From NCBI GenBank assembly GCA_018815925.1, contig JAHIWS010000020.1, forward strand, positions 23,993 to 87,992: a stretch of DNA of 64,000 bases, written 5' to 3'. Under the pieces are notes generated by a model, which saw only the letters and a list, made by a program, of their open reading frames with translations, was not told the origin of the DNA and ran no database searches. Each line of letters opens with the position of its first letter. Position 1 is the stretch's first letter. A program made the translations under genes and the position numbers. Source of the stretch: Nanobdellota archaeon. GTDB lineage: Archaea > Nanobdellota > Nanobdellia > Pacearchaeales > GW2011-AR1. Below are positions 1 to 53,265 of the stretch, in pieces.

Positions 1-488
1 TACAGTTCATTGTCATCAATAGAAATGAAAATTACTCCATTTTTTTTAAGTAAACTCTTAGATAATTCTAATCTCTTTTCCATAAATGAGAGCCAATATC
101 CATGTCTAAAAGGATGATCTTTTGGAACTTCAGTTCCATCAGGAAACTTGGAAATTATTCTCTTATCTTTATATCTAAATCCATCAGAACCCGTATTATA
201 AGGAGGATCAATGTAAATTACATCGATTTTTTCCTTATGAGTATAATTTAAACAAGTTAAGGCATGATAATTATCCCCTTGAATCAAAATATGTTGGGGT
301 TTTCCATCATCAGTCTTTATGGCCAAATTGGGAACTTCTTTAAGAACAGGCAATTTATTTTCAACATCATCTTCAAATGCTTCGGGAACATCCATCCAAA
401 CCAGACCATACCTTTGTTTTTTTACAGATTTTTTAAGCCGTTCAATTTCTTTTTGTAATTTAAATATCTCTTGATCTTTTATCGTCAT
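1..488 (-). CDS. Type III restriction-modification Mod-like N6-adenine DNA methyltransferase (N-terminal part; runs off the window)
   Basis: Manual translation from ATG at 488: MTIKDQEIF...RYGLVW...HILIQGDNYHAL...IDVIYIDPPYNTG...WLSFMEKRL...GVIFISIDDNE; DPPY catalytic motif. Confidence 0.9.
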   Translation of the reverse strand, partial: MTIKDQEIFKLQKEIERLKKSVKKQRYGLVWMDVPEAFEDDVENKLPVLKEVPNLAIKTDDGKPQHILIQGDNYHALTCLNYTHKEKIDVIYIDPPYNTGSDGFRYKDKRIISKFPDGTEVPKDHPFRHGYWLSFMEKRLELSKSLLKKNGVIFISIDDNEL

Positions 489-596: not shown

Positions 597-869
597 CTAT
601 TCTCCAGAGACTTTGAATACCTCTCTTAAAATGTTCCTCCCTTTTTTAGTAATTTTATAAAATTTAAATGAACGGTCTTCGGGATTAATACACTTTATTA
701 AATCTTTCTGAGAAAGTTCTTTTATCGTCGTAGAATTATGAGATTTATATTGTTTAAGTGCCCTCATAATCTCTGGTTGGCTTAATTGAGTGTGATTAGA
801 AAGTAGATTAAGCGTTTCTTTCCTCCTTTTTGCTCTCGCAACAAAACCAATTAGTTTTAAATCTACCAT
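597..869 (-). CDS. Winged-helix transcriptional regulator (MarR/ArsR-like)
   Basis: 90 aa; RRKETLNLL...SQPEI...STTIKELSQKDLI...FYKITKKG wHTH pattern. Confidence 0.75.
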   Translation of the reverse strand: MVDLKLIGFVARAKRRKETLNLLSNHTQLSQPEIMRALKQYKSHNSTTIKELSQKDLIKCINPEDRSFKFYKITKKGRNILREVFKVSGE

Positions 870-953: not shown

Positions 954-1919
954 ATGAAAAGCATGCCAGAAAAACAAAAATCTTGGATCAGGAGACACTG
1001 GATTATTTCAGGAGTTATAGGGTTCTTTGCATTATTTTTAATCATCGGGGTTTTTCAAGGAGTAAATAATGGAATTACAGGAAATGTAGTTAATGAAGGG
1101 CAATCTGATTTACCTACTTCATATTCTGAAGCCAAGCAAAAAGCAACAGATGTTTCTTATGAAGAGCTCATGCGGCATGCTGAAACTTATCAAGGCCAAT
1201 GGGTCTGTTTTAAAGGAGAAGTTATTCAAGTAATCACAGATCTCCCTAAACTTGAATTGAGAGTGTCTACAAGGGCAGATGAATGGGTTGGTTACATAGA
1301 AGACATTGTTTATGTTTATGCAACTGATTATTCTGGTGAAAGATTATTGGAAGGAGATATGATTCAGTTTTGCGGAAAATCAGGAGGTGCGGTTACTTAT
1401 GAAGCAATTCTTGGTAATAAAATTACAATTCCCGGAATTGAAACTGATGAGGCTTATGTGGAATTAATTGATAAGAGTGAAATAAGTCAAGAGCAAAAAC
1501 CTGTTGCAACACTTGGCCAGATTTGGGTCTCTGCTGAAAACTTTGATGCTGATTCAGATATTGATGGTATTGAATTTAGTCTGCAGCCAAAAGATAGCAA
1601 AGGTGGACTTGTAAATGTAGAGGGCACTGCAAATATAAAACTCTGGAAGATGGAGTGCACAGAAAGAGGTGAATATGGAGAATATTGCCTTCAAGAAGAT
1701 TGCACTCGAAAAGACAGTTTGCTTATTGAAACTTGGTCTCTTCCTATTAACTCAGAAGATTATGATTTCATGGGTGCTAACATTCAAGCAGAATATAAAA
1801 GTTACAAACCTCAGGGAGATAAGTATGAACAAAAAGGCTGCATAGAAGTAACTTTTGTTGATCCAAAGGGAAATAGTTTCACAACATCTGAGAGGGATAT
1901 TTATTTAGCGGGATTTTAA
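954..1919 (+). CDS. Membrane-anchored exported protein with OB-fold-like domain (accessory gene)
   Basis: N-terminal TM helix; YEELMRHAETYQGQWVCFKGEVIQV...RLLEGDMIQFCG OB-like segment; Cys-containing C-terminal domain. Confidence 0.6.
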   Translation: MKSMPEKQKSWIRRHWIISGVIGFFALFLIIGVFQGVNNGITGNVVNEGQSDLPTSYSEAKQKATDVSYEELMRHAETYQGQWVCFKGEVIQVITDLPKLELRVSTRADEWVGYIEDIVYVYATDYSGERLLEGDMIQFCGKSGGAVTYEAILGNKITIPGIETDEAYVELIDKSEISQEQKPVATLGQIWVSAENFDADSDIDGIEFSLQPKDSKGGLVNVEGTANIKLWKMECTERGEYGEYCLQEDCTRKDSLLIETWSLPINSEDYDFMGANIQAEYKSYKPQGDKYEQKGCIEVTFVDPKGNSFTTSERDIYLAGF

Positions 1920-1923
1920 AGAT

Positions 1924-2526
1924 TCACCTCTTGCGTCTTATATCAAGAAATGCAAAAGCGAATCCTCCCGTCCAAGTAAAATTAATCAAAGCCTTAACAA
2001 ACTCCTGGTTTTCTTCTGGAAGCACTACCTTATCTTTGCCCTCTTCTACAATCCACTCGATTTTATCGAGCTGACTTTCTAATTCAGGAATATTTGGGAT
2101 TTTGATTAAACCTTCTTTGAAAAGTTTGTTTAAATAAAAATAAATTCTGCTTTGATCGTCTGCAAAATCATTTGATTTGAATTTTTCAATTTCGAATCTG
2201 CATTTATGAACAGTTACAAAATCTCTAATTTCTTCTATTATTTCATTACTTGCTCCACCAGGATTAATTCTGAATATTCCTTTTTCCACTCCAAAAAATT
2301 CTTTAATCACTTCTTTAATTTTCTCTTTTATATCTTGTCCGATAAAATAATCTATAATTTGATAGTTCTCTTTTTCTATTTCTACTACTTGACTAAATGA
2401 CCTCCCCCTTAAATTTGGGGATTGAACAAATTTACTTCTCTTAGTTTCAGGAATATGATAACCCCACACCATAGCAGACCTTTCTGTTGATGTCTGACCA
2501 ATGCTACATGCAATTATTTTTTTCAT
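1924..2526 (-). CDS. Stand-alone, degenerate terminase RNase H-like nuclease-domain protein
   Basis: Motif-by-motif similarity by eye to the C-terminal half of the adjacent TerL, with the catalytic Asp positions substituted; ATGA overlap with TerL. Confidence 0.55.
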   Translation of the reverse strand: MKKIIACSIGQTSTERSAMVWGYHIPETKRSKFVQSPNLRGRSFSQVVEIEKENYQIIDYFIGQDIKEKIKEVIKEFFGVEKGIFRINPGGASNEIIEEIRDFVTVHKCRFEIEKFKSNDFADDQSRIYFYLNKLFKEGLIKIPNIPELESQLDKIEWIVEEGKDKVVLPEENQEFVKALINFTWTGGFAFAFLDIRRKR

Positions 2527-3926
2527 TGAATAGCTCTCCGTATTTCATTTAAATCAAATAGTTTATTTGCTCTTTGAAAGACAAAAAACATCCTCATCAT
2601 GATTGAATCTCCATAGTCTGTTGATCTTCCAAGATTCTCTTTAATTTCCTCTTTTGTTAAAATGCTCAATGGCTGATCTTTTCCAGGATTCGCTTGTTTG
2701 ATTTGTTCAAGATCCTCAATAATTTTTTCTTTTATTCTCGCATCAATATCCCTATAAATTCCAATTCTTCCAGAGTTAACATAATTCGCAAGTTCAAACC
2801 AACATTGAGCTTTTAAATTTCTAAAATTCTGTAAAGAGGTTTCTTTTTCTTCTTTAGACTTAAAGGGACTTGCGTTATTCACAAATCCTTTGACACCTGT
2901 TAAATCTTTTACTAATCCAAAACCCACACCATCTTCGTCAACTAAGCAGTGACTTCTTTGAATTTTATTTTCTGTTAATATCTTATCTAATTCTTCATTT
3001 GAGATGTTGTCCATTATTTTAATACCTGTGATAAAAAAACCATCCCAAAAAGTTAAAACGGTTTTGTCTCTTCCCCTGCCAGCAACATCAACTGTGCAAT
3101 ATTTCTGACCCTTTTCTGCTTCATTCGTGAACAAGTCCATAATTGCATCATAATTAAAAAGTCTTGTAGGGTCATCGTCATATTCCCAATTTCCATAAAG
3201 CAATCTTTCTTTGCTCACTCTGTCTAATTTTTTAAGATTCTCCAAATGATGGGGGCTGATATAATGATTATCTTTTACAAATGCAGGCAAAAACTTTCTA
3301 TACTTTGGAAGCCTATTTTCTTTCCAAGGTTTGTAAAAATCATAATACAAAAAATTCTTACTTGGATTAGAACAAATCAATAATTTTGGAATTAATTTAA
3401 ATTCTTCAAGTTTGAATCTCAACCTACTCATTAAAATATTCTTTGCCTTGATTGTAACTTCACTTGCTTCATCTATCACAGCTCCGCAAAATTCAGTCGA
3501 GCCCAACGAATCAAATTCAGGATCGCTTGGATATAAGAATAAATCTTTCAAATAGATCTCACTTCCATTTGAAAAGGTAATCACGCCAGCCATTGAATTG
3601 TAATTATAATCTTGATTGGGTTTCAAATTCCAGTCCCTACAAATCTGGAAGAAGGTCAATAATGTTGAGTCTTTAAGTCGTTTTAATACTGCTCGGCCCA
3701 TAAGCCATCTACTCCCTGGATATCTCAAACAAGAGAATGTTAACCATGCACATGCAAGGTGGCTCTTACCTCCACCACTTGCACCTCCGAATAAGAGTTC
3801 TGTAGTCTCTTTGTCTTGAAGTATCTCCCATGCCTGTTCTTGCCTCTTCGTCGGAGAAAACCTGATCTCATGTGTCTGACCCCTTTGAAAACTTGCAGGG
3901 GTTGTTTCTGGCGTGCTTTTTCCCAT
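2523..3926 (-). CDS. terL: Phage terminase large subunit
   Basis: Walker A GGASGGGKS, Walker B AVIDEASE, coupling motif CSNP, LLYGNW linker, nuclease motifs VDVAGRGRD, VDEDGVG, TDYGDS. Confidence 0.93.
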   Translation of the reverse strand: MGKSTPETTPASFQRGQTHEIRFSPTKRQEQAWEILQDKETTELLFGGASGGGKSHLACAWLTFSCLRYPGSRWLMGRAVLKRLKDSTLLTFFQICRDWNLKPNQDYNYNSMAGVITFSNGSEIYLKDLFLYPSDPEFDSLGSTEFCGAVIDEASEVTIKAKNILMSRLRFKLEEFKLIPKLLICSNPSKNFLYYDFYKPWKENRLPKYRKFLPAFVKDNHYISPHHLENLKKLDRVSKERLLYGNWEYDDDPTRLFNYDAIMDLFTNEAEKGQKYCTVDVAGRGRDKTVLTFWDGFFITGIKIMDNISNEELDKILTENKIQRSHCLVDEDGVGFGLVKDLTGVKGFVNNASPFKSKEEKETSLQNFRNLKAQCWFELANYVNSGRIGIYRDIDARIKEKIIEDLEQIKQANPGKDQPLSILTKEEIKENLGRSTDYGDSIMMRMFFVFQRANKLFDLNEIRRAIQ

Positions 3927-3933
3927 TTCCCCA

Positions 3934-4371
3934 TCAATCCTCCTTCTTCTCTGTTATTATCTTGAAAACGTAATTTTTCACGTTCAAATTATGTTCATCT
4001 GCGATCTTTGATTTTAGCCCAAATTTCTCTAAGAAATCGGTGAAATTAGAAATTGTTTGATTAAGCAAAGAGATCCCCTTTGCTTGGATATTCTGATCTT
4101 GTGATAAAATCAATCTATGGGCGGCCCTCATGCTCACTTCAAAAGAGAGTATAAATTTTTTGGATAACTTCTCAATTTCAGGGAAGGCTATCTGTCTTAT
4201 CACAATTTCAATGTCTTTGTAAATTTGTCTTTCAGTAACCTTAAATTTTTCAGAAAGGCTTTTAACAACTTGCACAGGTATTCCAAAACCTCCGGCTGCA
4301 TTAAGATAATTCAAAATATCATTTCTCCTTTCTATGTAGTTTCCTTTTTTCTCTGCCATTTTTTGAATCAA
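3934..4371 (-). CDS. Putative terminase small subunit
   Basis: N-terminal HTH (LSEKFKVTERQIYKDI), helical middle region, C-terminal beta tail; directly upstream of terL. Confidence 0.6.
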   Translation of the reverse strand: MIQKMAEKKGNYIERRNDILNYLNAAGGFGIPVQVVKSLSEKFKVTERQIYKDIEIVIRQIAFPEIEKLSKKFILSFEVSMRAAHRLILSQDQNIQAKGISLLNQTISNFTDFLEKFGLKSKIADEHNLNVKNYVFKIITEKKED

Positions 4372-4419
4372 ATCGAAACAGGTTCTCTCTTAAAGGTCAT
4401 TTCATATCCAAAACCAATA

Positions 4420-4519
4420 GTTCAAAGTTCATATCTATAGAAATATGAACTTTTGAACAATCTCTTGGTTTTTTGCTAAAAGTTCAAATAATCCAATTGA
4501 ACTTTCTGAACTATTGAAC
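4420..4519. repeat. Iteron-like GTTCA/TGAAC array with inverted repeats (putative element origin or pac site)
   Basis: Eight GTTCA/TGAAC pentamers at 4420, 4427, 4446, 4454, 4482, 4498, 4507 and 4515, directly downstream of the primase-helicase gene. Confidence 0.6.
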
Positions 4520-4521
4520 AA

Positions 4522-6291
4522 TCATAAAACCTTATATTGTCCATGAGATACTTTCTCGATTATTCCTGACACCTCCATTGTTTTGAGTGCATTATTGAAA
4601 TTAGTTTTACCAATTCCTTTGTTAGCAGCTTTTTCTAATCCTTCATTTGTTTGAAATTCTTTTATTCCTTTTTCCTTAAACCATTTCTTTAAAACTTCAA
4701 TACATTTGTCCTCTTTGTTCTTTTTGACGAATTCGCCAGAGTAAACCATTTTAATCTCATCTTCAAGAAATGTAACCAAAAGTTTCATCGGTGGCAACTC
4801 TGATTCATTTCTATTCTTTAATTGTTTCAAAACCAAATTTCCTCCCTTCCTTTCTGCTTTAAGAATTGCATCTGCATAATTTGCCAAGTCGCTTGATCCC
4901 CTTAACTCATCCATCTCATCTCCAGCAGATCCACCCTTACGATTATGATGTAACAAAAGAATTGAGCAATTGTACTTTTCGACTAAAGGCCTTAAAGTAT
5001 CGACAAACAATTCAGATACACTTCCTGCATCATTCTCATCAAAAGAGATGGCCCTTCTATAAGTATCAATCACTAATAACTTAGGTTTATGTTCTTCCAA
5101 TATTTTCTCAATTGCTTCAATGTCTCTTTTTTTATCAATCTTAATTGAAGAAAAACAAATAAATCCAATATCATATTCTCCCGTCAACCCTAATCCCTTT
5201 TTAACCATCGAAGTTCTTTTTTTCATTATCGCATATCCATTCTCTTTATCGAGATAAATTACTTTTCCTTTTTTGGATTTGAACTTATTTAAAAAATCAT
5301 TACCTGACGCAACAGCATAACATATCAAGATAGCCAAAAAAGTTTTCAAGACTCCTGCCTTTCCGACTAACAAACACACAGATCTATTTGCGATAATCTT
5401 TTCAATTATCCACTCTAATCCTTCGGTTTCGTAATCTTTTAAATTGCCTTCCCAGATAATATTCAGATCAACTTTCTGTTCTTTAATTTCTCGTGGTTTT
5501 AATCCATATTTTTCTTCTGCAATTTTTAAAACATTAACAAAATCTACTTTTCTTAAAGAACCACTTTTTGCATCAGAACAATCCATAAGACCTTCCTTTA
5601 CTGCGATTGCAGCTGCAGGACCCCCACCAGAATTGCATCTAAAACAGTGCCACGTATTCTTAAAAGGATTTATCCAAAAGTTAGATTTTGTCTCAGAACC
5701 ATGAATAGGATGGGAACCATAATATTCACTTCCCTGTTTTTTCAATCCAGCAGTTCCCCAAATATCTACAACAGATAAGTTATCTATATCCGAATCTTGA
5801 ATTATTTTTGATACAGGAATTTCTTTCTTATCTTGGAAAGGTTTAACAAATTCAATAAGCTGATCATAATTAAGATTTGTTATTGGGATGTCATTCATGG
5901 CTTCATAAATTTTTCCAGAAGGATGAACTGATCCTGGCCCTATAACCTGAGTTCCCTGGCTCTGAACCTCTCCAATATGTTCTCCCTCTAATTTTAAAAT
6001 AATTTTTTTCTTTAACCCTTCAACAAAAAAATAATTATGCATTCCATTTCCTGTTTTAACCTTAAATGTCTGAGGTAACTTTCCATCTATCAACATCTGC
6101 AATTTTGTGCTATCAGCATCTATCACTGCAAGATTATCATATCCACATAAAACCCCATAATTCTCATCAGGAAGAAAATTCTTAATTTCACTGTAAGAAT
6201 ATGGTTTGTTAACCCAATCTGATTCAAAAGGCTTTTTCGTTCCCTTTTTTATCCTACAGAATTTTAAGTTTTGTAATGTTTCTGGTATCAT
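4522..6291 (-). CDS. Bifunctional primase-polymerase fused to Zn-finger and RecA/AAA_25-like helicase
   Basis: Prim-pol motifs NYGVLCG..VIDAD, KTGNGMHNYF, VIGPGSVHPSG; H-P-I-H...WHCFRC zinc finger; Walker A GKAGVLKT; LVIDT; LLHHNRK...LRGSS. Confidence 0.88.
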   Translation of the reverse strand: MIPETLQNLKFCRIKKGTKKPFESDWVNKPYSYSEIKNFLPDENYGVLCGYDNLAVIDADSTKLQMLIDGKLPQTFKVKTGNGMHNYFFVEGLKKKIILKLEGEHIGEVQSQGTQVIGPGSVHPSGKIYEAMNDIPITNLNYDQLIEFVKPFQDKKEIPVSKIIQDSDIDNLSVVDIWGTAGLKKQGSEYYGSHPIHGSETKSNFWINPFKNTWHCFRCNSGGGPAAAIAVKEGLMDCSDAKSGSLRKVDFVNVLKIAEEKYGLKPREIKEQKVDLNIIWEGNLKDYETEGLEWIIEKIIANRSVCLLVGKAGVLKTFLAILICYAVASGNDFLNKFKSKKGKVIYLDKENGYAIMKKRTSMVKKGLGLTGEYDIGFICFSSIKIDKKRDIEAIEKILEEHKPKLLVIDTYRRAISFDENDAGSVSELFVDTLRPLVEKYNCSILLLHHNRKGGSAGDEMDELRGSSDLANYADAILKAERKGGNLVLKQLKNRNESELPPMKLLVTFLEDEIKMVYSGEFVKKNKEDKCIEVLKKWFKEKGIKEFQTNEGLEKAANKGIGKTNFNNALKTMEVSGIIEKVSHGQYKVL

Positions 6292-6608
6292 AGTATTTGC
6301 TGTCCATATTTAATTTTGTTAATTGGTTCCTGCTTACTAAGCCAGCAGAAAAAGCATTCCTTCATGTAATAATTTTCTCGAATGAAAATCCTTCCACATT
6401 TACATTTGTATATTTTCTCTTCGTCAACTTCCATTCCAGTATTACACTCAAATCCGAGATTAACAGCACATTCGAAGCAGAGCCAGAGAATATCCCATCT
6501 ACCACTGCTGTTCTGGTCAACATAATACATTTCTTTTATTCTCCCACATAGTTTACATCTCCTTCCTTTTTTCATTTTAAAAATAAAAAGGGGATTTTTC
6601 ATCCCCAA
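6288..6608 (-). CDS. Zinc-finger protein
   Basis: CKLC, CFEC, CKC, CFFC motifs. Confidence 0.6.
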   Translation of the reverse strand: MGMKNPLFIFKMKKGRRCKLCGRIKEMYYVDQNSSGRWDILWLCFECAVNLGFECNTGMEVDEEKIYKCKCGRIFIRENYYMKECFFCWLSKQEPINKIKYGQQIL

Positions 6609-6612
6609 AAAA

Positions 6613-6933
6613 TTAAAGTGGCTTTAAGACAATCATTTCCTTTCCAAATTTCGGACTTTTGTCTTTAGTGATTTTCACTTTCTGACCAATCCAATTGACG
6701 TCATCTTCGCCGTACTTTCCAATCAAATTTGAAATTGAAAAGTTGTTCAAGAAAACATCAAACTTCAATTGTCCGCTGTCTACTGTTGCCACTAATCTGT
6801 CGCCATGCTTGGTTTCCAGGTCCTTAATTTTCTGGATGGAAACATCCATTTCCTTAACATATTCCAGATCTTCATCGGACGTCGGTTTGACCTTGATGGT
6901 CGGCAGAATTTCTTTAGCTTTTCTAAGCACCAT
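6613..6933 (-). CDS. Small beta-rich protein, possible OB-fold ssDNA-binding protein
   Basis: Strong SD (GGAGG); LIGKYGEDDVNWIGQKVKI pattern seen in viral SSB-like proteins; lies in the replication module. Confidence 0.45.
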   Translation of the reverse strand: MVLRKAKEILPTIKVKPTSDEDLEYVKEMDVSIQKIKDLETKHGDRLVATVDSGQLKFDVFLNNFSISNLIGKYGEDDVNWIGQKVKITKDKSPKFGKEMIVLKPL

Positions 6934-6973
6934 TGTTTAACCTCCTGCAATTTAATTATCTCTTCGAAGAGCA

Positions 6974-7159
6974 TCATTTTTCCGCCTCCTCTAAAGTCGA
7001 AATTTCAGAAATAGAAAGGAGGACAATTTTCCCAGTTTTATCTCTAATTTTTATAAAAGAATTGTCTGCAGCTAACAAATGCCCACGGTAATAAAAGCTA
7101 CTCCTTAAAATTATTTTGACATATTTCCCAATCAAATTATTACAATCAATCGAATCCAT
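6974..7159 (-). CDS. Sm-like (LSm/Hfq-fold) protein
   Basis: LIGKYVKIIL..YYRGHLLAADNSFIKIRD (Sm1-like) and IVLLSISEISTL (Sm2-like). Confidence 0.6.
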   Translation of the reverse strand: MDSIDCNNLIGKYVKIILRSSFYYRGHLLAADNSFIKIRDKTGKIVLLSISEISTLEEAEK

Positions 7160-7161
7160 TT

Positions 7162-7344
7162 TTACCTCTTTTTTTTAATCTCCTCGAGAATTTGATTTAA
7201 TTTTACTTCGACACTTTTTGATTGAAACATTCTTGATCGACAAAAAGAGGTTACAGTAGGGAACCCTTCCATCTTCGCAAGTTTCTCCAATCTCTCTTTC
7301 TCTTCCTTCGTCGCCTTTATCATAACGAAATGATTTTTAGCCAT
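7162..7344 (-). CDS. Ribbon-helix-helix DNA-binding protein
   Basis: HFVMIKATKEEKERLEKLAKMEGFPTVTSFCR beta-helix-helix pattern. Confidence 0.7.
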   Translation of the reverse strand: MAKNHFVMIKATKEEKERLEKLAKMEGFPTVTSFCRSRMFQSKSVEVKLNQILEEIKKKR

Positions 7345-7546
7345 TTTTCACCTCTTCAAATTTAATAAGTGTATTTTTTCCAGTGCTAAGAATTATAATT
7401 TGCCCATTCATTTTCAAAATTTCAAGAATTTCTTTAACAGTTCTGTATCTCAACATAGCCTCTGAACAGATTTGGGAAGGAGAAACAGCTACATCTTTCT
7501 CCCTTAGATAATTTAACACCTTTTGAATAGATTTTGTATTTGCCAT
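7337..7546 (-). CDS. Small winged-helix protein (Cro-like position)
   Basis: KVLNYLRE...SPSQIC...YRTVKEILEILK..GQI; first gene of the leftward operon. Confidence 0.7.
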   Translation of the reverse strand: MANTKSIQKVLNYLREKDVAVSPSQICSEAMLRYRTVKEILEILKMNGQIIILSTGKNTLIKFEEVKNG

Positions 7547-7552
7547 CTTGTT

Positions 7553-7648
7553 TGATATTTAATATCAATCAATAGTTCTTTTTTTATAAATCTTTTGGTT
7601 GGATATTAAGTATCATACTAATACTACACAATGACAACATTTATAAAA
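7553..7648. promoter_or_regulatory. Divergent promoters with two operator-like palindromes
   Basis: TGATATTTAATATCA (7553-7567) and GGATATTAAGTATCA (7601-7615) flank TTTATAAA near 7583-7590; a second TTTATAAA lies near 7641-7648. Confidence 0.55.
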
Positions 7649-7670
7649 TCAGTTTGACATAAAATACAAT

Positions 7671-8588
7671 ATGGATATAAAAAAGAGCAGCAGCGGAAGA
7701 GACAAGATAAAAGTTATTGAAAGTGTCCCATATAGCCAATTAATATTTTTGATCTCCTCTGGAAAAACCTATGCATTAGAGATAGCTAAAGCCAGAGGGA
7801 AAAAAGATAGCTCCCCAACAGCAAAACAATTGGACCAGTTAAAAAAAAGGGGGTTTCTAACTTCAAAAAAAGGGGGGTTACTTAATAAGAATATTTATTC
7901 AATTAATTGGAAAAAAATTAATAAAGAATTTGTCAATTATGTTTTTAACATTTTCGAGAAAGATGTTAAAGATTATAAAAAAATAAGTAAAAAAGAGCAG
8001 GATGAACCAAAGGAAAATCACTACAACGAACTTCTAAAAAAAATAAAAACCAAAAACTTTGATAAGGATATCAAAAACCACGAGTACCTCATCACGTTAT
8101 TAAAACTTACCTTCCCTCTTGTTGAGAATAGAGAAAAAACCATTAGAGAGATATTTGAAGATTTAAGAATAAATTTTCCTCAACCACCAGGCACTTTTGT
8201 TGATCACCCTTCAAAATTTCATGATGAAAAAAAGAGAAGAGAATCAGGAGAATACTACACAGATCTTATTGAAGGGAGAAAAAGAGATGAAAAATACGCC
8301 CAACTAGAAGAGTTCATTAAAATAACAAGAGGTGTTTCAGATACAGTTGGAATGCGTGGTATTGAACGTCTATGGAAATATCTGCAAATCAAATATACTG
8401 CTTCACACCCAAATAATGAAATAAGAAAAGAATTATTGCAAACAGTTCCAAAAGAGGTGATGGAAATTATAAAAGAAAATTGTTTCAAAGGAACAAAACC
8501 CACCGAAAATAAAGAAGAAGATTCTGAAAATGCAAATCAAAATGTTGTCTTATCGACGGAAAAAGGAGAAATTGAAAATGAAAAGTAA
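7671..8588 (+). CDS. HTH-domain protein, putative element repressor
   Basis: N-terminal wHTH (YALEIAKARGKKDSSPTAKQLDQLKKRGFL); divergent from the replication/packaging operon. Confidence 0.6.
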   Translation: MDIKKSSSGRDKIKVIESVPYSQLIFLISSGKTYALEIAKARGKKDSSPTAKQLDQLKKRGFLTSKKGGLLNKNIYSINWKKINKEFVNYVFNIFEKDVKDYKKISKKEQDEPKENHYNELLKKIKTKNFDKDIKNHEYLITLLKLTFPLVENREKTIREIFEDLRINFPQPPGTFVDHPSKFHDEKKRRESGEYYTDLIEGRKRDEKYAQLEEFIKITRGVSDTVGMRGIERLWKYLQIKYTASHPNNEIRKELLQTVPKEVMEIIKENCFKGTKPTENKEEDSENANQNVVLSTEKGEIENEK

Positions 8589-8684: not shown

Positions 8685-9836
8685 GTGCATTCTTGGTACT
8701 TTACAGGCTTAATTCCAGGAATCCACATAAATCTTGTAGGGGTTTCTATTGTTTCTTTATCAGCATCTTTACTAGCATCTATAAACCCTCTTTATCTTTT
8801 GATTTTTATTGTTGCAACGGCAATCACCCACACTTTTCTTGATTTTATTCCTAGTGTTTTTTTAGGATGCCCAGACACAGACACAGAACTTTCAATTTTA
8901 CCGGGCCATGAACTTTTAAAAAAAGGCCAAGGATATTCTGCAATAATGCTAACTGCCTATGGGAGTCTAGCAGCAATATTTTTATTACTTATTATTACTT
9001 GGCCTTCAATAATAATTATTTCAAAAATACAAAACATTCTTCCAATAATAATTCCAGGATTATTAGTATTAGCTACTCTTTTTTTAATTTCAACAGAAAA
9101 AAATAAATCAAAGGCGATATTTGCCTTTCTCTTAACAGGAATCTTAGGATTAATTATTTTAAATTTAGAAAAAGTTGACCAACCTCTTCTTCCTTTATTA
9201 ACAGGATTATTTGGAGGGGCAACAATTTTATTATCTATAAAAAACAAAACCCAAATTCCCAAACAAACTCTTAAACTAACAAAAACTAAAATTTCCAAAC
9301 CCATCTTAGGAGCTTTAATAGCATCCCCAATATGCTCTTTTCTTCCAGGTTTAGGATCAGGACAAGCAGCAATCATAGGAAATTCAATTGCCCAAACAAA
9401 TAAAAAAGGTTTTCTAATTTTATTAGGTGCAACAAATACTTTAGTAATGGGTTTTTCTTTTATCTCATTGTATGCAATATTAAAAACAAGAACAGGAGCA
9501 GCATCAGCAATTAAAGAAATTTTGGGAACCTTGGAAACAAATTATTTAATTTTAATCCTGTTAGTAATTTTAATTTCAGGAGTAATTTCTTTTTATTTAA
9601 CAAAAAACTTAGCAAAATTCTTTTCACACAAAATAACAAAAATAAATTACACAAAAATTTCCCTAGCGACCCTATTAATATTAACACTAATTGTTGTCTT
9701 AGTTTCAGGTTTTTGGGGCTTGCTGATTTTAATAATCTCAACTCTAACAGGAATCTATTGCATCAAACTAAAAGTAAAAAGAACTCTTATGATGGGTTGT
9801 CTAATGTTACAGACGATTTTATGGTATTTGTTTTAA
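8685..9836 (+). CDS. Tripartite tricarboxylate transporter TctA-like (DUF112) membrane protein, 5'-truncated or frameshifted
   Basis: FTGLIPGIHIN, FLDFIPSVFLG, LSILPGH, FLPGLGSGQAA motifs; the first TM helix is missing. Confidence 0.8.
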   Translation: MHSWYFTGLIPGIHINLVGVSIVSLSASLLASINPLYLLIFIVATAITHTFLDFIPSVFLGCPDTDTELSILPGHELLKKGQGYSAIMLTAYGSLAAIFLLLIITWPSIIIISKIQNILPIIIPGLLVLATLFLISTEKNKSKAIFAFLLTGILGLIILNLEKVDQPLLPLLTGLFGGATILLSIKNKTQIPKQTLKLTKTKISKPILGALIASPICSFLPGLGSGQAAIIGNSIAQTNKKGFLILLGATNTLVMGFSFISLYAILKTRTGAASAIKEILGTLETNYLILILLVILISGVISFYLTKNLAKFFSHKITKINYTKISLATLLILTLIVVLVSGFWGLLILIISTLTGIYCIKLKVKRTLMMGCLMLQTILWYLF

Positions 9837-16900: not shown

Positions 16901-18115
16901 TTAATTATAATTTAAAGAATGTTCAATTATCTCTTTTGCTTTTTCAATTATATTCCTACCAATTGCTAATTTTATTTCCCTCATTCTCCCTCCTCTCCCT
17001 TTAGAAATAACCTTGACATTAATAATTCCCAACATATCAAACTCCTGAATAATATCACTAACCCTTCTCTGGGTTAAAACTTCTAACTTATTCCTTATGC
17101 AAATGTCTTGATAAAGATTATAAACATCACCTGTAAAAATAGGGTTTTCTTTTTGTTTGTCTGATAATTTAATTATGGCACCTAAGACAACTTGAAACTG
17201 TTTAGGTTCAGAATCTATAACTTCTAAAATCTTATCCTTTTCTATCTTATCATTAGCTTCATCTATATGTTTTAATAGAATTTTTTCTGAGTTATCTCGC
17301 TCTGCTAATTCTCCTGCAACTCTTAGTAAATCTAAAGCCCTCCTTGCATCTCCATGTTCTCTAGCAGCATATGCAGCACACTTAGCTATCACACCTTCTT
17401 TAACTACCTCTGGTTTAAAAGTCAATTCTGATCTTTTTTTTAAAATTTCTTGGAGCTGCATAGCATTATAAGGGGAAAAAACTATTTCTTCCTCAGATAA
17501 AGAACTTCTAACCCTAGGATCAATCTCCTCTAAAAAAGTAAGATCATTACTAATTCCTACAATACAAATCTGGGTTTTAGATAGTTCAGAATTTAACCTA
17601 GTTAAATTATACAAAAAATCATTAGAAATTTTTTTGACTGTTTGATCAATCTCATCAAGGATAAGAACCAGCAATTGTTTTTCCGAATCAATAAGTTCTA
17701 TGAATTTACTATAAACAGCCTGTGTCGGAAGACCTGTAGAAGGAACCTCTCCACCTAATTTTTTAATAAGTTCTGCTAAAATCCTATATTCTGTGTCAGA
17801 AATTTTTTTTAATTTGCAATTTAAATATTCTATTCTAAGTTTAAAATCAGCATCTTTTTTTACCCTTTTCAAAAGTTCATCTTTGACATATTGTATTGAA
17901 AGGGTTTTTCCTGTACCTGTTTTCCCAAATAAAAATAAATTACTAGTTTTTTCACCTCTCAAAGCAGGAGCCAATATAGAAGCAACTTGTTTTATTTGTT
18001 CTCCTCTATGTAATATCTCTTCAGGCCTATGATTTGACTGTAAAATTGATTTATTTTTAAAAATCTTATTCTTATCAAAAGACTCAAAAATACCTTCTAA
18101 TTCCTCTTTCATCAT
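16901..18115 (-). CDS. cdc6: Orc1/Cdc6 replication initiator
   Basis: GKTGTGKT, ILDEID, HGDARRALDLLR, C-terminal winged helix. Confidence 0.97.
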   Translation of the reverse strand: MMKEELEGIFESFDKNKIFKNKSILQSNHRPEEILHRGEQIKQVASILAPALRGEKTSNLFLFGKTGTGKTLSIQYVKDELLKRVKKDADFKLRIEYLNCKLKKISDTEYRILAELIKKLGGEVPSTGLPTQAVYSKFIELIDSEKQLLVLILDEIDQTVKKISNDFLYNLTRLNSELSKTQICIVGISNDLTFLEEIDPRVRSSLSEEEIVFSPYNAMQLQEILKKRSELTFKPEVVKEGVIAKCAAYAAREHGDARRALDLLRVAGELAERDNSEKILLKHIDEANDKIEKDKILEVIDSEPKQFQVVLGAIIKLSDKQKENPIFTGDVYNLYQDICIRNKLEVLTQRRVSDIIQEFDMLGIINVKVISKGRGGRMREIKLAIGRNIIEKAKEIIEHSLNYN

Positions 18116-45150: not shown

Positions 45151-46026
45151 ATGAAAATAGGTTTTATAGGGTTGGGTTTTGTTGGGGGTGCAACAAAACA
45201 AGTTTTTGAAAAAAATCACGAAACATTCACCTATGATAAATATAAAGAACCTTATAATTCAGAAGAACATTTGAAGTCTGTAGCTGAAAATTCTGAAATT
45301 ATTTTTTTATCTCTCCCAACACCTATGAAACCAAGCGGAGAAATAGACTATTCTGCTATCTATGACTCTTTAGATAATTTAAAAAAAACCTTAGAAGAAA
45401 TTAAAAGATCTCCTGAAGAAATTATAATTGTCATTAGATCAACATCAGTTTCAGGTTCTTCTGATAAACTTGCGGAACAGTATCCTTTTAGATTTGCAGT
45501 AAATCCAGAGTTTTTAACAGAAAGAAATGCTTTAGAAGATATGAAAAAAACAGACAAGGTAGTCATTGGAACAAGTTCTTTAGAAGATTATCAAAAGATA
45601 TATCAAGCTTATCACCCTGTTTTCCCTTATGCTAGATATGTCCATGTTGATAGAAAGACTGCAGAAATGATAAAATATTCTGCAAATGTTTTTTTAACAG
45701 GGCAAGTAACTCTTGCAAATGAAATTTATCAAATTTGCCAAGTTCTTGGTGTAGATTATAAAACAATAAAAGAGGTTGTGTTGTTTGATAAGAGAATAGG
45801 AACCCATATAAACGTTCCAGGTCCTGATGGAGATTTAGGTTTTGGGGGAAAATGTTTCCCAAAAGACATTAATGCCTTAATTTATTTAGCTAGAGAAAAA
45901 ATGTATAGGCCTTATTTACTTGAAGAAATGTGGAGGTTAAATGAAAGGATAAGAACAAAAAAGGATTGGTTTGATATACCTGGAGCAACCTCTGAAAACC
46001 AGAATTTTAAAGAATTTAACAATTAA
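45151..46026 (+). CDS. UDP-glucose/GDP-mannose dehydrogenase family protein (short form)
   Basis: GLGFVG, LPTP, NPEFL, AEMIKY, GFGGKCFPKD; C-terminal UDP-binding domain absent. Confidence 0.88.
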   Translation: MKIGFIGLGFVGGATKQVFEKNHETFTYDKYKEPYNSEEHLKSVAENSEIIFLSLPTPMKPSGEIDYSAIYDSLDNLKKTLEEIKRSPEEIIIVIRSTSVSGSSDKLAEQYPFRFAVNPEFLTERNALEDMKKTDKVVIGTSSLEDYQKIYQAYHPVFPYARYVHVDRKTAEMIKYSANVFLTGQVTLANEIYQICQVLGVDYKTIKEVVLFDKRIGTHINVPGPDGDLGFGGKCFPKDINALIYLAREKMYRPYLLEEMWRLNERIRTKKDWFDIPGATSENQNFKEFNN

Positions 46027-46076
46027 TATATTTTTAATATGTCAAATTTAAAAAGGGTATTTTTCTAATTATTAAA

Positions 46077-46553
46077 ATGCGTCCTTCTGAACATATATTT
46101 TTAGGAATAATCTTTTCCTTATTTTTATTTATCTTTTTTCCAAAAATAGGGTTTATAGGTTTTTTACTTATTTTTCTTTCAACCGTGTTAATTGATATAG
46201 ACCATTATGTTTATTATGTTTACAAAAAAAGAGATTTAAGTTTAAAAAAAGCTAGAAAATGGAACCTTGAATTAGGTAAAAAGTGCTTTTATTTAATACA
46301 AAATAAAAAACAGAAAAATTTTCATGGGGTTTTCTGTTTTTTTCATGGAATTGAAATAATTATTATTATGTTTTTTTTATCGATTTTTTCAAGAATATTT
46401 TTATTTATTTCCTTGGGTTTAACTTTTCACCTCCTTTTAGATATTTATTCCGAATATAGGTGTATTGGAAGAGTTACTAGTAAGTTTTCACTAATAGTTG
46501 ATATCATAAGAAATAAAAAAACTGAATTTATTGAAGATTATCAAAAATGTTAA
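46077..46553 (+). CDS. Membrane-bound metal-dependent hydrolase-like protein
   Basis: H, IDIDH, FHG, FHLLLD motifs with TM segments. Confidence 0.65.
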   Translation: MRPSEHIFLGIIFSLFLFIFFPKIGFIGFLLIFLSTVLIDIDHYVYYVYKKRDLSLKKARKWNLELGKKCFYLIQNKKQKNFHGVFCFFHGIEIIIIMFFLSIFSRIFLFISLGLTFHLLLDIYSEYRCIGRVTSKFSLIVDIIRNKKTEFIEDYQKC

Positions 46554-46990
46554 TAAAAAAATTTTTTGAAGAGATAACTTTTCTAGGGGGGGTTCTTTTT
46601 TATAGTATTTTTTTATTATATTTTTTATTAGAACAAAAATACATTTATTTTGGTATACTTTTGACTTCCTTAATTTTAGTATATTTTGTCACATTTCTCA
46701 TAAGAATCTTTTATTTTAAAACCCGTCCAGAAAAAGTAAAATACAATAATTTTTTAGAAAAAATAGATGCTTCAGCATTTCCTAGCATCCATGCGGCAAG
46801 AGTGTTTATTTTATTTCTTTTTTTTATTTCTTTTATTAATAATTTTTATTTCTTTTTTTTATTTTTACTTTTTGTATTGTTTTTAACTATTTATTCTAGA
46901 ATTTACCTTAGAAAACATGATATAGTGGATGTTTTTGGGGGGCTTATTCTAGGTACAATATCTTTTTTTGTATCCTTCTTAATTTGGTAA
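46547..46990 (+). CDS. PAP2-family lipid phosphatase
   Basis: KTRP, FPSIH, SRIYLRKHDIVDV. Confidence 0.88.
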   Translation: MLIKKFFEEITFLGGVLFYSIFLLYFLLEQKYIYFGILLTSLILVYFVTFLIRIFYFKTRPEKVKYNNFLEKIDASAFPSIHAARVFILFLFFISFINNFYFFFLFLLFVLFLTIYSRIYLRKHDIVDVFGGLILGTISFFVSFLIW

Positions 46991-47839
46991 ATAATAAAAA
47001 CTAAAGATAATAATTATTAACCAAAATAACAAAGCCAGGATAATTTTCTTATCAAAAATAAATTTTTCAGGGTTTCTTATTTTTTCAGGAGAATTATATA
47101 GGTTTTGGAAAAACATAATTACTATATACAATGCTATGGGTACACTTAAAAGAAGTGTTGGTTTAAAATTTAAGACACTATAAATAGAAAAGAAAACAAA
47201 TACACAAGCAATTGAAATTATTGATAAAATCTCTAAAATTTTTTTATCAGAACTAGTGAAATTTGGCCTGTATTTTTTAATCCCTTTCATCATAATTTCC
47301 AAAGAACGTTTTGAACTAACTAAAAATATAGATAGAAAAAAAGTTATAAGGATAACCCAAATAGAAACAGGGGATTTTATTATGAATGTTCCAGAGACAG
47401 CCCTTATCACAAAATTTAAAGAGATAAAAATAATATCTAAGTAAGGAATATTTCTTATATCTAAATTATATATTTGGGAAAGAATAAAAAGTAGAAGGAT
47501 AGAGTATAAAAAAAGACCTCCTAAAAATGAAGCAATTAGTAATGATAATACAAAAAGGACAACAGAGGTTATTATTGCCGGATTTTTTTTTATTTTTCCA
47601 GATGCAATAGGGCGAGTGTTTTTTTCAGGATGGTTTTGATCTTTTTTTATATCTAAAAGATCATTAATTATATAATAAGAAGAGGAAATAAAACAAAGTG
47701 AAATAAAACCAAGGATTGTCAGGAAAAAAAATTCTTTATTAAAAAGATTTAATGAAAAAATAAGTGAAATAAAAATTATAAGGTTTTTATACCACTGCTC
47801 AACACGCAACAATCTCAAAGAATCCTTAATCTGCAACAT
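46979..47839 (-). CDS. UbiA-family polyprenyl-phosphate phosphoribosyltransferase (DPPR synthase-like)
   Basis: LRVEQWYKN, YIINDLLDIKKDQNHPEKNTRPIASG, FVIRAVSG, KRSLE. Confidence 0.85.
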   Translation of the reverse strand: MLQIKDSLRLLRVEQWYKNLIIFISLIFSLNLFNKEFFFLTILGFISLCFISSSYYIINDLLDIKKDQNHPEKNTRPIASGKIKKNPAIITSVVLFVLSLLIASFLGGLFLYSILLLFILSQIYNLDIRNIPYLDIIFISLNFVIRAVSGTFIIKSPVSIWVILITFFLSIFLVSSKRSLEIMMKGIKKYRPNFTSSDKKILEILSIISIACVFVFFSIYSVLNFKPTLLLSVPIALYIVIMFFQNLYNSPEKIRNPEKFIFDKKIILALLFWLIIIIFSFYYLPN

Positions 47840-47890
47840 ATACAAAAAATATGAATAATCTTTAAATACCTTTCTTTGACTTTTCTTCTT

Positions 47891-48937
47891 ATGAAGAAAT
47901 TAATGGTTACAGGAGGTGCTGGATTTCTTGGGTACCATATTTGTAAAAAACTCTCTAAGGAATTTGACAAAATTATTATAACAGATATAGATTTTTTCAA
48001 TAAAAAAGAATATGCTAAAAACATTGAATATTTTAAATTAGATGTAAGGGATAAGAAAGGGATGGAAAAATTAATAAAATTGCAAAAACCAGATTTTATA
48101 ATCCATGGGGCTGCTGCTCTTCCTCTTGCCCAAAAAAAAACAATTTTTCAGGTTAATCTAGAGGGGATAAAAAATATTTTAGATCTTTCACTAAAAAATA
48201 AAATTAAAAGGGTTGTTTTTATTTCTTCTACAGCAGTATATGGGATTCCACAAAAATACCCTATTTGCGAAGAAGATCCTATGGTGGGTGTTGGGCCATA
48301 TGGGAAAACAAAAATTATTTCAGAAAAATTGTGTGAAAAATATAGGAAAAAAGGATTATGTATTACAAGTATTAGACCCAAAACATTTATTGGGACAAAC
48401 AGATTAGGTGTTTTTCAAATTTTATATGATTGGGTTGAGACTGGTGTAAAAATACCTATCATAGGAAATGGTAAAAATAGATACCAATTACTAGAAGTAG
48501 AAGATTTGGTAGATGCAATTTATTTAGCTTTGATAAAACCAAAAGATAAGGTGAATGATATTTTTAATGTGGGGGGGGAAAAATTTAAAACAGTCTATGA
48601 AGATGTTTCTGAATTATGCAAATTTGCAAACTCTGGAGCCAGGGTTATGAGAACCCCTGCATTTTTGATAATTTTTGCCTTAAGATTTTTTGAGATGTTA
48701 AATTTATCTCCTTTATATAAATGGGTTTACGGAACTGCTCAAAAAGATTCTTTTGTTTCTATAGATAAAATCAAGAAACAATTAGGGTGGGAACCCAGAT
48801 ACAGCAATGCCCAAGCACTTATACGTTCTTATAAATGGTATATAGATAACAAACCCACACTTGCTAAAGAAGAAGGGATAACCCATAGAGTGCCTTGGGC
48901 CCAAGGGGTTTTAGGCTTATTTAAAAAAATCCTTTAG
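47891..48937 (+). CDS. NAD-dependent epimerase / 3-beta-HSD-like SDR
   Basis: TGGAGFLG, SSTAVYG, YGKTK. Confidence 0.88.
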   Translation: MKKLMVTGGAGFLGYHICKKLSKEFDKIIITDIDFFNKKEYAKNIEYFKLDVRDKKGMEKLIKLQKPDFIIHGAAALPLAQKKTIFQVNLEGIKNILDLSLKNKIKRVVFISSTAVYGIPQKYPICEEDPMVGVGPYGKTKIISEKLCEKYRKKGLCITSIRPKTFIGTNRLGVFQILYDWVETGVKIPIIGNGKNRYQLLEVEDLVDAIYLALIKPKDKVNDIFNVGGEKFKTVYEDVSELCKFANSGARVMRTPAFLIIFALRFFEMLNLSPLYKWVYGTAQKDSFVSIDKIKKQLGWEPRYSNAQALIRSYKWYIDNKPTLAKEEGITHRVPWAQGVLGLFKKIL

Positions 48938-51111: not shown

Positions 51112-51193
51112 AAAATTTAGGATTTTTAAGAATATTTAAAATTATATAGCCTGGAATAGTCATCTTTTTAAAGATTTTTTTTTTCAATAATCA

Positions 51194-51814
51194 ATGGACC
51201 AACACAATTTACTTTTAAAATTCAAATTAGAAAAAGTTGCCTCCTTGATTAAACCAAATTCAGTAGTTTTAGACATAGGATGTTATGATGGGAGGTTAAA
51301 AAAATTTATTCCTTCTTGTGATTATTATGGTATTGATGTTAATAAAGAATGCATAGATAAATTAAAAAAACAAAGAATAAAAGCAAAACAAGTTGATTTA
51401 AACAAAGAAGAAATTCCCTTTAAACCAAAAAAATTTGACTATATTTTTTTATTAGATATTTTAGAGCATTTAGTGGACCCAAAAAAACTTCTATTAAAAT
51501 TAAAAGAAAGATTAAAACCTCATAGCAAATTAATAATTACCTTACCTAATGATTACCATATTTTAAATAAAATAAGATTTTTATTTAATAAGTCACTTAC
51601 AGAAAATCCATTTAATCCCTTTGGTCACCTTCATTTTTTTCCTATTTCTTTTGCAGATAGTTTTTTAAAAGAACAAGGATATGAAATTTTGAAAAAAGAA
51701 TTTTTAGCTCCTGTAAAACCTTTGATTCTCCCAAAGGGCTTAAAAAACATATTATCTAACTTATTTCCACAAACATTTTCTAGAAACATACTTTATGCTG
51801 TTAAACTTAGCTAG
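51194..51814 (+). CDS. Class I SAM-dependent methyltransferase
   Basis: VLDIGCYDG, DILEHL. Confidence 0.88.
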   Translation: MDQHNLLLKFKLEKVASLIKPNSVVLDIGCYDGRLKKFIPSCDYYGIDVNKECIDKLKKQRIKAKQVDLNKEEIPFKPKKFDYIFLLDILEHLVDPKKLLLKLKERLKPHSKLIITLPNDYHILNKIRFLFNKSLTENPFNPFGHLHFFPISFADSFLKEQGYEILKKEFLAPVKPLILPKGLKNILSNLFPQTFSRNILYAVKLS

Positions 51815-51821
51815 AAATTTC

Positions 51822-53159: not shown

Positions 53160-53265
53160 CTTTCTTATGGTTTTTTCTGTTTTAAATAAATTTCTACACT
53201 CTTTTTAAGCTAAATAATTAAAAAACCTCAGCAACCTTTATAAGCTTCTTTTAATAGGGAAAAAG

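Follow-up and report, generated by a model that had tools for sequence, protein, structure and literature searches.

Satellites of tailed viruses are well studied in bacteria. As far as the accessible parts of the sources go, phage-inducible chromosomal islands (PICIs) typically carry terS, the gene of the small terminase subunit (TerS), and no other phage genes, and capsid-forming PICIs (cf-PICIs) encode their own TerS and large terminase subunit (TerL) together with capsid, portal and head-tail connectors and take only the tails from a helper (de Sousa et al., NAR 2023). Small terminase subunits are also reported from marine satellites of bacteria, for which the helper is presumed to supply TerL (Eppley et al., PNAS 2022). 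In archaea, the same kind of partial survey gives pSSVi and pSSVx as the only satellites described before further satellites of spindle viruses were added (Zhou et al., bioRxiv 2025), and a small circular satellite of an Asgard siphovirus, NMV2S, has been proposed (Meltzer et al., bioRxiv 2026). Here we analyze positions 1924-8588 of a 64-kb stretch of archaeal DNA ("the window": positions 23993-87992 of contig C13 of genome G000, which comprises 0.93 Mb in 29 contigs, with 29% GC and 88% completeness), for which a model working from the letters alone (the sequence-only reading) had proposed a satellite with its own terminase and no virion genes. This region makes up the right-hand third of an integrated element of 19,612 bp (C13:13083-32694, ± 6 nt) that ends at approximately window position 8702. 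With moderate confidence, we interpret it as a satellite-type integrative element that would use its own terminase to be packaged into the procapsids of a helper head-tailed virus.

Delimitation of the integrated element

Logan contigs (not reads) of four runs (X1-X4) were placed on C13:12900-32899 (L158), the runs carrying the stretch being labelled as groundwater metagenomes, with no RNA run listed among them. In X2, L158:183 is followed directly by 19796 in one contig (depth 12.5), which thereby leaves out 19,612 nt; six letters (ACAGGC) are common to both sides. A second contig (depth 8.61) starts at L158:160 and continues into the element; the two look like a fork in the k = 31 graph at a common 30-mer. 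The element is absent from part of the population in this sample. A repeat search gave no direct repeat near the ends longer than expected by chance, and the boundaries were taken from the empty-site contig instead. Cover in X3 and X4 was thin or missing over parts of L158.

The insertion split a gene for a TctA-family membrane protein and moved its first ~20 codons 19.6 kb leftwards. The left flank codes for a hydrophobic peptide, from a start codon through 20 further codons, with a stop just within the element, and across the empty-site join this frame runs on, in frame, into the TctA-family gene. The TctA-family genes of relatives begin with a closely resembling peptide in all 11 loci examined, and in seven of these the gene is adjoined by that of a tyrosyl/tryptophanyl-tRNA synthetase-family protein (TyrRS); the target gene itself was present in 29 of the 31 genomes searched (G000 included). 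The join was trusted because the restored reading frame and the N-termini of the relatives (11/11) corroborate it independently. No tRNA gene was found in the 32 kb around the element. The leftward extension of the contig that the sequence-only reading had suggested yielded both a tyrosine integrase near the left end (Pfam, E 6.2e-26) and the element boundary, the 11 kb left of the window holding only the integrase and defence cargo. All features placed in the window are given in Table 1.

Separately, an X1 contig over the right flank (depth 16.6) starts at L158:19063 (window 7970), about 730 nt inside the element, and the remaining element contig has a depth of 11.2; the start at window 7970 may mark a second variant sharing the right end of the element.

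Table 1. Features of the element and its right flank in the window (positions count from the first letter of the window; strand relative to the window)
Feature	Position	Strand	Evidence
Type III methyltransferase (Mod), N-terminal part	3..488	-	Pfam N6_N4_Mtase E 5.7e-29; PADLOC MTase_III E 8.5e-84
90-aa winged-helix protein	597..869	-	Weak Pfam matches to HTH_27 and MarR_2 (E 2e-4 or worse), none above the cut-off
321-aa membrane-anchored accessory protein, convergent on the packaging operon	954..1919	+	N-terminal hydrophobic segment; PHROG 5319 "outer membrane protein" E 5.8e-15
Stand-alone RNaseH-like nuclease domain of terminase type (pseudo-nuclease), 200 aa	1924..2526	-	Atlas, profile, hhalign
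Large terminase subunit TerL, complete ATPase and nuclease	2523..3926	-	Pfam, PHROG
Small-terminase-like protein, 141 aa from M5 (145-aa ORF)	3934..4371	-	Position; homologues; predicted shape
Iteron-like cluster, candidate replication origin and/or packaging site	4372..4521	.	GTTCA density; inverted repeat
PrimPol with CHC2 zinc ribbon and AAA_25 helicase, 589 aa	4522..6291	-	Pfam AAA_25 2.7e-29, Prim-Pol 1.2e-12, Zn_ribbon_DnaG 9.3e-8
106-aa zinc-ribbon protein	6288..6608	-	Four CxxC pairs read from the translation; no Pfam or PHROG match
106-aa protein, "OB-fold" in the sequence-only reading	6613..6933	-	No Pfam match; sub-threshold PHROG of unknown function, E 0.008
61-aa Sm-like small protein	6974..7159	-	DUF6897 E 0.0027, below cut-off
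60-aa ribbon-helix-helix-like protein	7162..7344	-	Sub-threshold matches: NikA-like E 1.1e-4, MobC_2 E 0.0037
69-aa winged-helix protein, first gene of the leftward operon	7337..7546	-	TFIIE_beta-like E 2.2e-4, below cut-off; PHROG transcriptional regulator E 6e-4
Divergent intergenic region, presumed control region	7547..7670	.	Layout only
orf305, 305 aa, N-terminal winged-helix-like region, candidate master regulator, last element gene	7671..8588	+	Atlas leads
Target gene, TctA-family membrane protein	8685..9836	+	Pfam TctA 1.9e-41, from profile position 13
Right junction, attR core ACAGGC	8703..8708	.	Empty-site contig; left copy at C13:13083-13088, outside the window

Packaging genes and their relatives

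Every open reading frame (ORF) named in the sequence-only reading was present at its coordinates, and its TerL was confirmed by Pfam, with Terminase_3 (32.5 bits) and Terminase_6N (30.8 bits) both over the cut-off, and by two PHROG TerL families (E 2.7e-25 and 2.7e-24), PHROG_2 covering residues 21-452. Residues G51, G52, K54, S55, D152, E153, D280, D330, E331, D332, D437 and D440 were invariant in a three-sequence alignment; of these, we take K54 to belong to Walker A, D152-E153 to Walker B, and D280, D330-E331-D332, D437 and D440 to the nuclease. The protein combines an ATPase bearing Walker A and B motifs with an RNaseH-like nuclease bearing an acidic triad, and judging from its sequence it appears functional and of viral origin.

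In reference genomes the best TerL matches had 33-50% identity and were mostly from Bacteroidota, and one contig of a Methanosarcinaceae metagenome-assembled genome among them was that of a virus with PolB and portal. IMG/VR contained 468 relatives, the best at 64% (contig L077). In the TerL phylogeny, a check put forward by the sequence-only reading, the window TerL was nested among those of virus contigs, together with L077, L086 and L157 in a 17-row clade made up of IMG/VR contigs only (FastTree of 120 TerLs, SH-like support 95, to which a long-branch warning applies). The ORFs that follow related TerLs reached the Pfam cut-off of a portal family in five of seven cases; one of the other two had a Mu-F match with a sub-threshold portal match, and one was sub-threshold.

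Two further loci were noted among the TerL matches. A Gracilibacteria contig of 1391 bp (L003, Candidate Phyla Radiation) is filled by a TerL of 49% identity, which pairs in the tree with an IMG/VR contig near the clade of the window. In Flavobacterium beibuense (L013:9496-14121), a TerS-like gene, a TerL of 45% identity and a 196-aa ORF of unknown function precede genes of the DinB-like and beta-propeller kinds, and large ORFs are lacking downstream; the locus may be a bacterial example of a terminase without a portal gene.

The mostly bacterial affinity of the best reference-genome matches and the near absence of this kind of TerL from the phylum sample (among 61 relatives it was present in one, G000 itself) would fit an assembly chimera or a contaminant virus fragment in an archaeal bin. 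We regard this as extremely improbable: the element lies well inside a contig of 92 kb, with an archaeal TyrRS gene on one side and the genes for TctA, a PurF-like protein and the large subunit of PolD (DP2) on the other, its insertion splits a host gene precisely, and its GC content is host-like (31.5% against 29% for the genome, the nearest TerL contigs having 30-33%). Moreover, X2, which belongs to a different study from the likely source run X1, holds the element, with 0.96 of the sampled words found and contigs over most of the stretch. The DP2 gene shows the organism to be an archaeon, and the genomes of relatives measure 0.4-1.4 Mb, in keeping with a DPANN-type organism. Elsewhere in the window, positions 46000-54000 have a GC fraction of 0.21-0.25, compared with ~0.29 in the rest.

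Small terminases are oligomeric DNA-binding proteins with an N-terminal helix-turn-helix (HTH) and a helical oligomerisation core, which are encoded beside TerL and recognise pac or cos. The ORF in this position ends 7 nt upstream of the TerL start and probably has its true start at M5. Its 12 homologues (62-94% identity) comprise a short form and a form with a C-terminal extension, and a homologue of 43% identity lies directly upstream of TerL in the IMG/VR contig L157. The AlphaFold model (pLDDT 75.5) consists of an N-terminal three-helix, HTH-like bundle followed by a long helical hairpin, a predicted shape that is compatible with small terminases. A predicted complex of this protein with TerL scored 0.01 ("no answer"), which is evidence neither for nor against binding.

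The gene downstream of TerL, which overlaps its stop by 4 nt, had been called TerL-like. It had no Pfam or PHROG match, and it proved to be a homologue of the TerL nuclease domain by other means. Its ESM Atlas model resembles Terminase_6C-bearing clusters (TM 0.58-0.67), and a profile of its family gave 39 matches among 1.84 billion representatives, the closest being stand-alone proteins of 195-250 aa and many of the distant ones proteins of 450-500 aa matched at their C-terminus; of ten matches scanned, seven had terminase Pfam domains and three had none. A comparison by hhalign with the C-terminal halves of 120 TerLs gave an E-value of 2.6e-4 and a probability of 42%. In a MAFFT alignment, three conserved positions are occupied by Asp in seven of eight TerL C-terminal domains (that of the window included) and by Ser, Asn and Lys in the clade of this protein. 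Because these residues replace the aspartates of TerL, the protein, which has a Terminase_6C-type fold and lacks the catalytic acidic residues, is very probably a paralogue of the terminase nuclease domain in which catalysis was lost, and we call it the pseudo-nuclease. BLASTP comparisons of the pseudo-nuclease with TerL and with the 196-aa ORF after TerL in the Flavobacterium locus returned nothing, and a kinship with the ORFs of ~220 aa located after TerL in 29 virus loci was rejected (hhalign probability 0.3%).

Replication module, regulators and candidate origin

The Pfam domains of the 589-aa protein (Prim-Pol, Zn_ribbon_DnaG and AAA_25) bore out the primase/helicase of the sequence-only reading. 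Relatives of this protein, with up to 40% identity over parts, occur in 20 of the 401 phylum genomes sampled, G000 among them. In 10 of their neighbourhoods that were fetched, tblastn detected no other gene of the element, barring a weak and unrelated TerL match in L074. A search of viral contigs with the PrimPol-helicase returned no relative; a weak PrimPol match (28% identity) occurs in two of the IMG/VR contigs with a related TerL, L079 and L081. The replication module is native to the phylum and the TerL is nested among virus TerLs; the element therefore joins a phylum-native replication module to a terminase of head-tailed-virus origin.

The gap between the primase/helicase and the packaging genes had been read as iteron-bearing, and this was substantiated by counting: GTTCA occurs there eight times, both strands counted, where 0.24 occurrences would be expected per 150 bp, which makes the gap the densest 150-bp stretch in the 64-kb window, and it also carries a 9-bp inverted repeat with an 8-bp spacer. 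Agreement was more partial for the small genes upstream of the primase/helicase. The zinc finger is supported by its four CxxC pairs, the winged-HTH (wHTH), ribbon-helix-helix and LSm labels by sub-threshold matches only, and the oligonucleotide-binding (OB) label by no Pfam match; an 89-aa ORF with a pattern similar, by eye, to that of the Sm-like protein stands at the start of L157. For orf305, the proposed HTH repressor, the divergent position holds, and its identity is indicated only by Atlas leads to wHTH repressor clusters with scores of 0.84-0.89, under the bar of 0.9, no Pfam, PHROG or PADLOC match having been obtained.

Lack of recognisable virion genes and conservation of the portal-less order

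As had been seen from the sequence, the packaging operon converges on an opposite-strand gene, that of the membrane protein, whose stop at 1919 is separated from it by 4 nt, and no portal, capsid or tail gene follows terL. None of the ORFs of the 19.6-kb element could be assigned to a portal, capsid or tail family in scans with Pfam, PHROG and PADLOC. The proposal of a satellite was to be abandoned if structural genes lay left of the window; they were looked for throughout the 11 kb and none was found. The HK97-fold capsid, portal and tail genes that would stand by the terminase in a Caudoviricetes provirus are thus missing from the set detected here. Searching the whole genome with PF04860, PF05065, PF05133, PF06074 and PF04233 (Phage_portal, Phage_capsid, SPP1_portal, Portal_Mu and Phage_Mu_F) gave nothing, a result that says little for PF06074 (Portal_Mu), which rang in no control genome. 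Likewise, 1388 ORFs from 82 related virus loci matched only TerL, the pseudo-nuclease, PrimPol and host-type genes in the genome.

Were the element a self-sufficient virus with a capsid and portal diverged beyond recognition, these would have to lie among the family-less ORFs (orf158, orf290, orf198, orf231 and small ORFs). For two of these the data leave some room, the predicted structure of orf290 being unusable (pLDDT 37) and orf198 having a weak match to a PHROG "tail assembly chaperone" (E 1.4e-4). TerL requires both a portal and an HK97-type shell (Duplodnaviria), and just three proteins of at least 290 aa without a family remain, namely orf290, the membrane protein and orf305, too few to provide both. 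Of the proteins of portal or capsid size, orf290 is the one that is soluble and family-less, the others being membrane-anchored, wHTH-like or members of known families; tail-sized genes are also lacking. We consider a hidden virus very improbable.

A metagenome scan with the pseudo-nuclease returned only two short contigs (L075 and L076), which are 84-91% identical to the window and have the same order of TerL C-terminus, pseudo-nuclease and convergent membrane gene, the membrane protein copies beside the pseudo-nuclease gene being 85-86% identical. These variants have diverged by dS (synonymous divergence) of 0.5-1.3, and the Nei-Gojobori omega was 0.03 for TerL (211 codons, dS 1.35), 0.11 for the pseudo-nuclease and 0.09-0.17 for the membrane protein. 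Because omega is 0.03-0.17 at dS 0.5-1.3, the portal-less order has been kept under strong purifying selection across substantial divergence. The more distant IMG/VR contig L157 has the trio of TerS-like protein (43% identity), TerL (62%) and pseudo-nuclease (33%).

These data bear directly on the possibility that the locus derives from a head-tailed provirus whose structural module has disappeared, the surviving genes being kept by chance or co-opted by the host. In favour of such a remnant, TerL is nested among virus TerLs that are followed by a portal gene, and the isolated phages nearest by TerL, Cellulophaga phi10:1 (45.6%) and Flavobacterium 11b (42.9%), are complete siphoviruses. The sequence-only reading had itself named a deletion remnant as an outcome that would overturn it, and the two portal-less variants, the purifying selection and the L157 trio argue against this. 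In addition, neither the integrase nor the boundaries are damaged, there is an empty-site allele, the left arm consists of defence cargo with no broken structural genes seen, and the type of replication module occurs in the phylum genomes mentioned above without TerL. Taken together, a provirus remnant appears unlikely.

Left arm and defence cargo

From its far end inward, the left arm reads host synthetase, 158-aa ORF, tyrosine integrase, small ORFs, orf290, DUF4238, orf198, Cas4-like nuclease, Res helicase, DUF365, orf231 and Mod, which runs into the window. The defence cargo amounts to ~9 kb and comprises a type III restriction-modification (RM) system, with a Res helicase and a 559-aa Mod, a Cas4-like nuclease of the PD-(D/E)XK type, and a DUF4238 protein that corresponds to DUF4238-Pers of PADLOC. 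The Mod gene spans L002:10801-12480, extending left past the window edge.

Some details of this arm stand on their own. Between Mod and Res, two genes are inserted (L002:9698-10799), encoding DUF365 and a 231-aa ORF with a motif that resembles PD-(D/E)XK by eye. The integrase ORF (L002:1178-2502 region) has its catalytic domain at the very start and a SHOCT motif at its end; the 158-aa ORF precedes it, its stop overlapping the integrase start by one base, and may supply the N-terminal domain that the integrase lacks. Furthermore, a perfect pair of 22-nt inverted repeats (L158:2562-2583 and 4120-4141; C13:15461-15482 and 17019-17040) flanks a 1.58-kb segment with orf101, orf76 and orf290, which could be a small mobile or invertible cassette.

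This cargo gives weight to the main rival explanation, an anti-virus role of the terminase module. The locus would then be an integrative defence island or plasmid-like element in which the TerS-like protein, TerL and pseudo-nuclease act by sabotage or titration on the packaging machinery of invading head-tailed viruses, without moving the element itself. Apart from the ~9 kb of defence genes, it is favoured by the pseudo-nuclease, which lacks catalytic residues as a decoy would, by the occurrence of a TerS-like gene without a detected TerL in another element (G090, described below), and by the existence of defence systems that target terminases, as indicated in the accessible part of a published report (10.1101/2025.02.27.640495). 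On the other side, a pure decoy would not need Walker A and B motifs and the full set of nuclease acidic residues, all kept at an omega of 0.03, and the element possesses a replication module of its own, with an ori-like site beside the packaging genes. Satellites also carry defence cargo and hinder their helpers, and to this extent the two readings overlap. We judge a purely defensive role to be rather unlikely, with the remnant, hidden-virus and chimera explanations less likely still.

Proposed life cycle

If the element is a satellite, its cycle might be triggered by the infection by, or the induction of, a head-tailed virus with a related TerL. The nearest TerLs belong to low-GC, portal-bearing virus contigs. 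On such a trigger, the divergent regulators would switch on the leftward operon, and the element would excise and replicate, starting at the iteron region. The TerS-like protein and TerL that it encodes could cut the element concatemers and dock on the portal-bearing procapsids of the helper, so that element DNA would be packaged in place of helper DNA, the tails also coming from the helper. The pseudo-nuclease might, speculatively, compete with the helper terminase or modulate the terminase of the element.

Several observations weigh against this interpretation. Regarding the TerS-like protein, no Pfam or PHROG TerS family was matched (HTH_11 only, below cut-off), Foldseek found no match to its model in the PDB at E ≤ 0.001, and VIA-align wide returned only generic helical hairpins (best Z 8.0). 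The TerS of the sequence-only reading is consequently a putative one, indicated by its position next to TerL and by its predicted shape, but not by a TerS family or by a match to a solved TerS fold. A distant homologue (E 5.6e-9) also occurs in an element of another genome of the same class (L175:5872-14709, G090:C24), which bears an integrase and has a D5_N/DUF5906 primase-helicase followed by the TerS-like relative, and in which no TerL was found. This kind of TerL was found in two of the 401 phylum genomes, G000 included, the other being a weak match (1.6e-5), and a lineage of such elements was not seen in assembled genomes; at greater distance (47-64% identity), relatives of the TerL belong to complete, portal-bearing viruses. 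The Pfam negatives are soft, as PF17289 (Terminase_6C) missed the nuclease domain of TerL itself and the genome is 88% complete. At the boundaries, the empty-site joint has 24 letters on its shorter side, joints of fewer than 30 letters being often spurious, and 14 other joints in the same table resemble noise; the direct-repeat search found no att repeat of more than six identical bases near the element ends, and the empty site may represent a strain that never carried the element rather than excision. Finally, the Logan contigs of the four runs gave no sign of a helper virus, a circular junction, raised coverage or encapsidated DNA. Of the packaging-only satellite that had been proposed, the layout, the integrase-marked bounds and the complete TerL without recognisable shell genes stand, and the TerS function and the loading into helper capsids are putative.

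More tentatively than the satellite nature itself, we suggest that the element could be the first of a class of satellites of archaeal head-tailed viruses that seize helper procapsids with a complete terminase and a dead nuclease copy, without a shell of their own. The pseudo-nuclease would act as a competitor that binds the portal or terminase and excludes helper packaging, and the fragments L075, L076 and L157 and the proteins P0002-P0019 from other metagenomes would represent the lineage in groundwater and marine DPANN archaea; among these proteins are variants of 84-94% identity (P0002 and P0005, both on an 8,448-bp contig, and P0007, on one of 7,113 bp) and longer TerS-like forms (P0014, contig of 73.5 kb, and P0015, 22.7 kb). 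If true, nested parasitism (host, symbiont, virus, satellite) would reach the head-tailed viruses of archaea, and the gap between PICIs (terS only) and cf-PICIs (terminase and capsid) would be filled. The apparently dead paralogue of the nuclease domain is a candidate for a new packaging-interference protein, and the element brings a compact defence island into a genome of less than 1 Mb. Its defined junctions make excision and packaging testable in existing groundwater reads and viromes.

Comparison with known systems

The PICI-type layout suggested by the sequence-only reading agrees with the description of PICIs in the accessible part of de Sousa et al. (2023). As in PICIs, e.g., the Staphylococcus aureus pathogenicity islands (SaPIs), there is an integrase-bounded island in the range of 10-20 kb, here with junctions defined by the empty-site contig, the integrase near the left end and the in-frame restoration of the target gene. 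Divergent regulators are present, and a primase-helicase is followed by iteron-like repeats, the GTTCA cluster with its palindrome being the candidate origin adjacent to the replication module. Further shared traits are a gene at the position of the small terminase, accessory and defence cargo, and a lack of virion structural genes; no structural or lysis gene was recognised, a statement to be read with the several family-less ORFs and the low sensitivity of Pfam in mind. The likeness is one of layout, the proteins of the element being placed by Pfam and PHROG only in broad families, and no gene that redirects capsid size was recognised in the element. It differs from PICIs in its archaeal host and in its terminase: in PICIs the satellite TerS redirects packaging and the helper supplies TerL, whereas the element has a complete TerL and, in addition, a pseudo-nuclease domain. 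With cf-PICIs, according to the same partial source, it shares its own TerL, the TerS position and the need of a helper for the rest of the virion; unlike cf-PICIs, which carry capsid, portal and connector genes, it has no capsid or portal gene that we could find.

The Bacteroidota siphoviruses phi10:1 and 11b and the IMG/VR contigs have a TerL of the same family, which is the only gene common to all of them and the element; in those viruses a portal gene follows TerL, and the isolates are complete. The integrative elements of the same phylum that carry a PrimPol-helicase share a related replication protein with the element, and no other gene of it recurred in the 10 neighbourhoods.

As to archaeal satellites, the statement in the sequence-only reading that no archaeal example had been described comes close to being right: spindle-virus satellites and a putative satellite of an Asgard siphovirus are reported, and in the literature searched, consulted as partial texts, none carrying a terminase was found. 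As far as these texts describe them, pSSVx, pSSVi, the SRCEs and NMV2S resemble the element in combining plasmid-type replication with an incomplete module for morphogenesis or packaging. In pSSVx, pSSVi and the SRCEs of (nano)haloarchaeal spindle viruses, this module consists of an AAA+ ATPase, a spindle capsid protein or both, and does not include a terminase. NMV2S comes closer in its proposed dependence on a head-tailed virus and in its helicase-primase, Arc-like regulator and Cas4-like nuclease. It is a circle on the scale of 3.8 kb for which the accessible text mentions no terminase gene, whereas the element described here is integrated, measures 19.6 kb, and carries a TerS-like protein, a TerL and a pseudo-nuclease.

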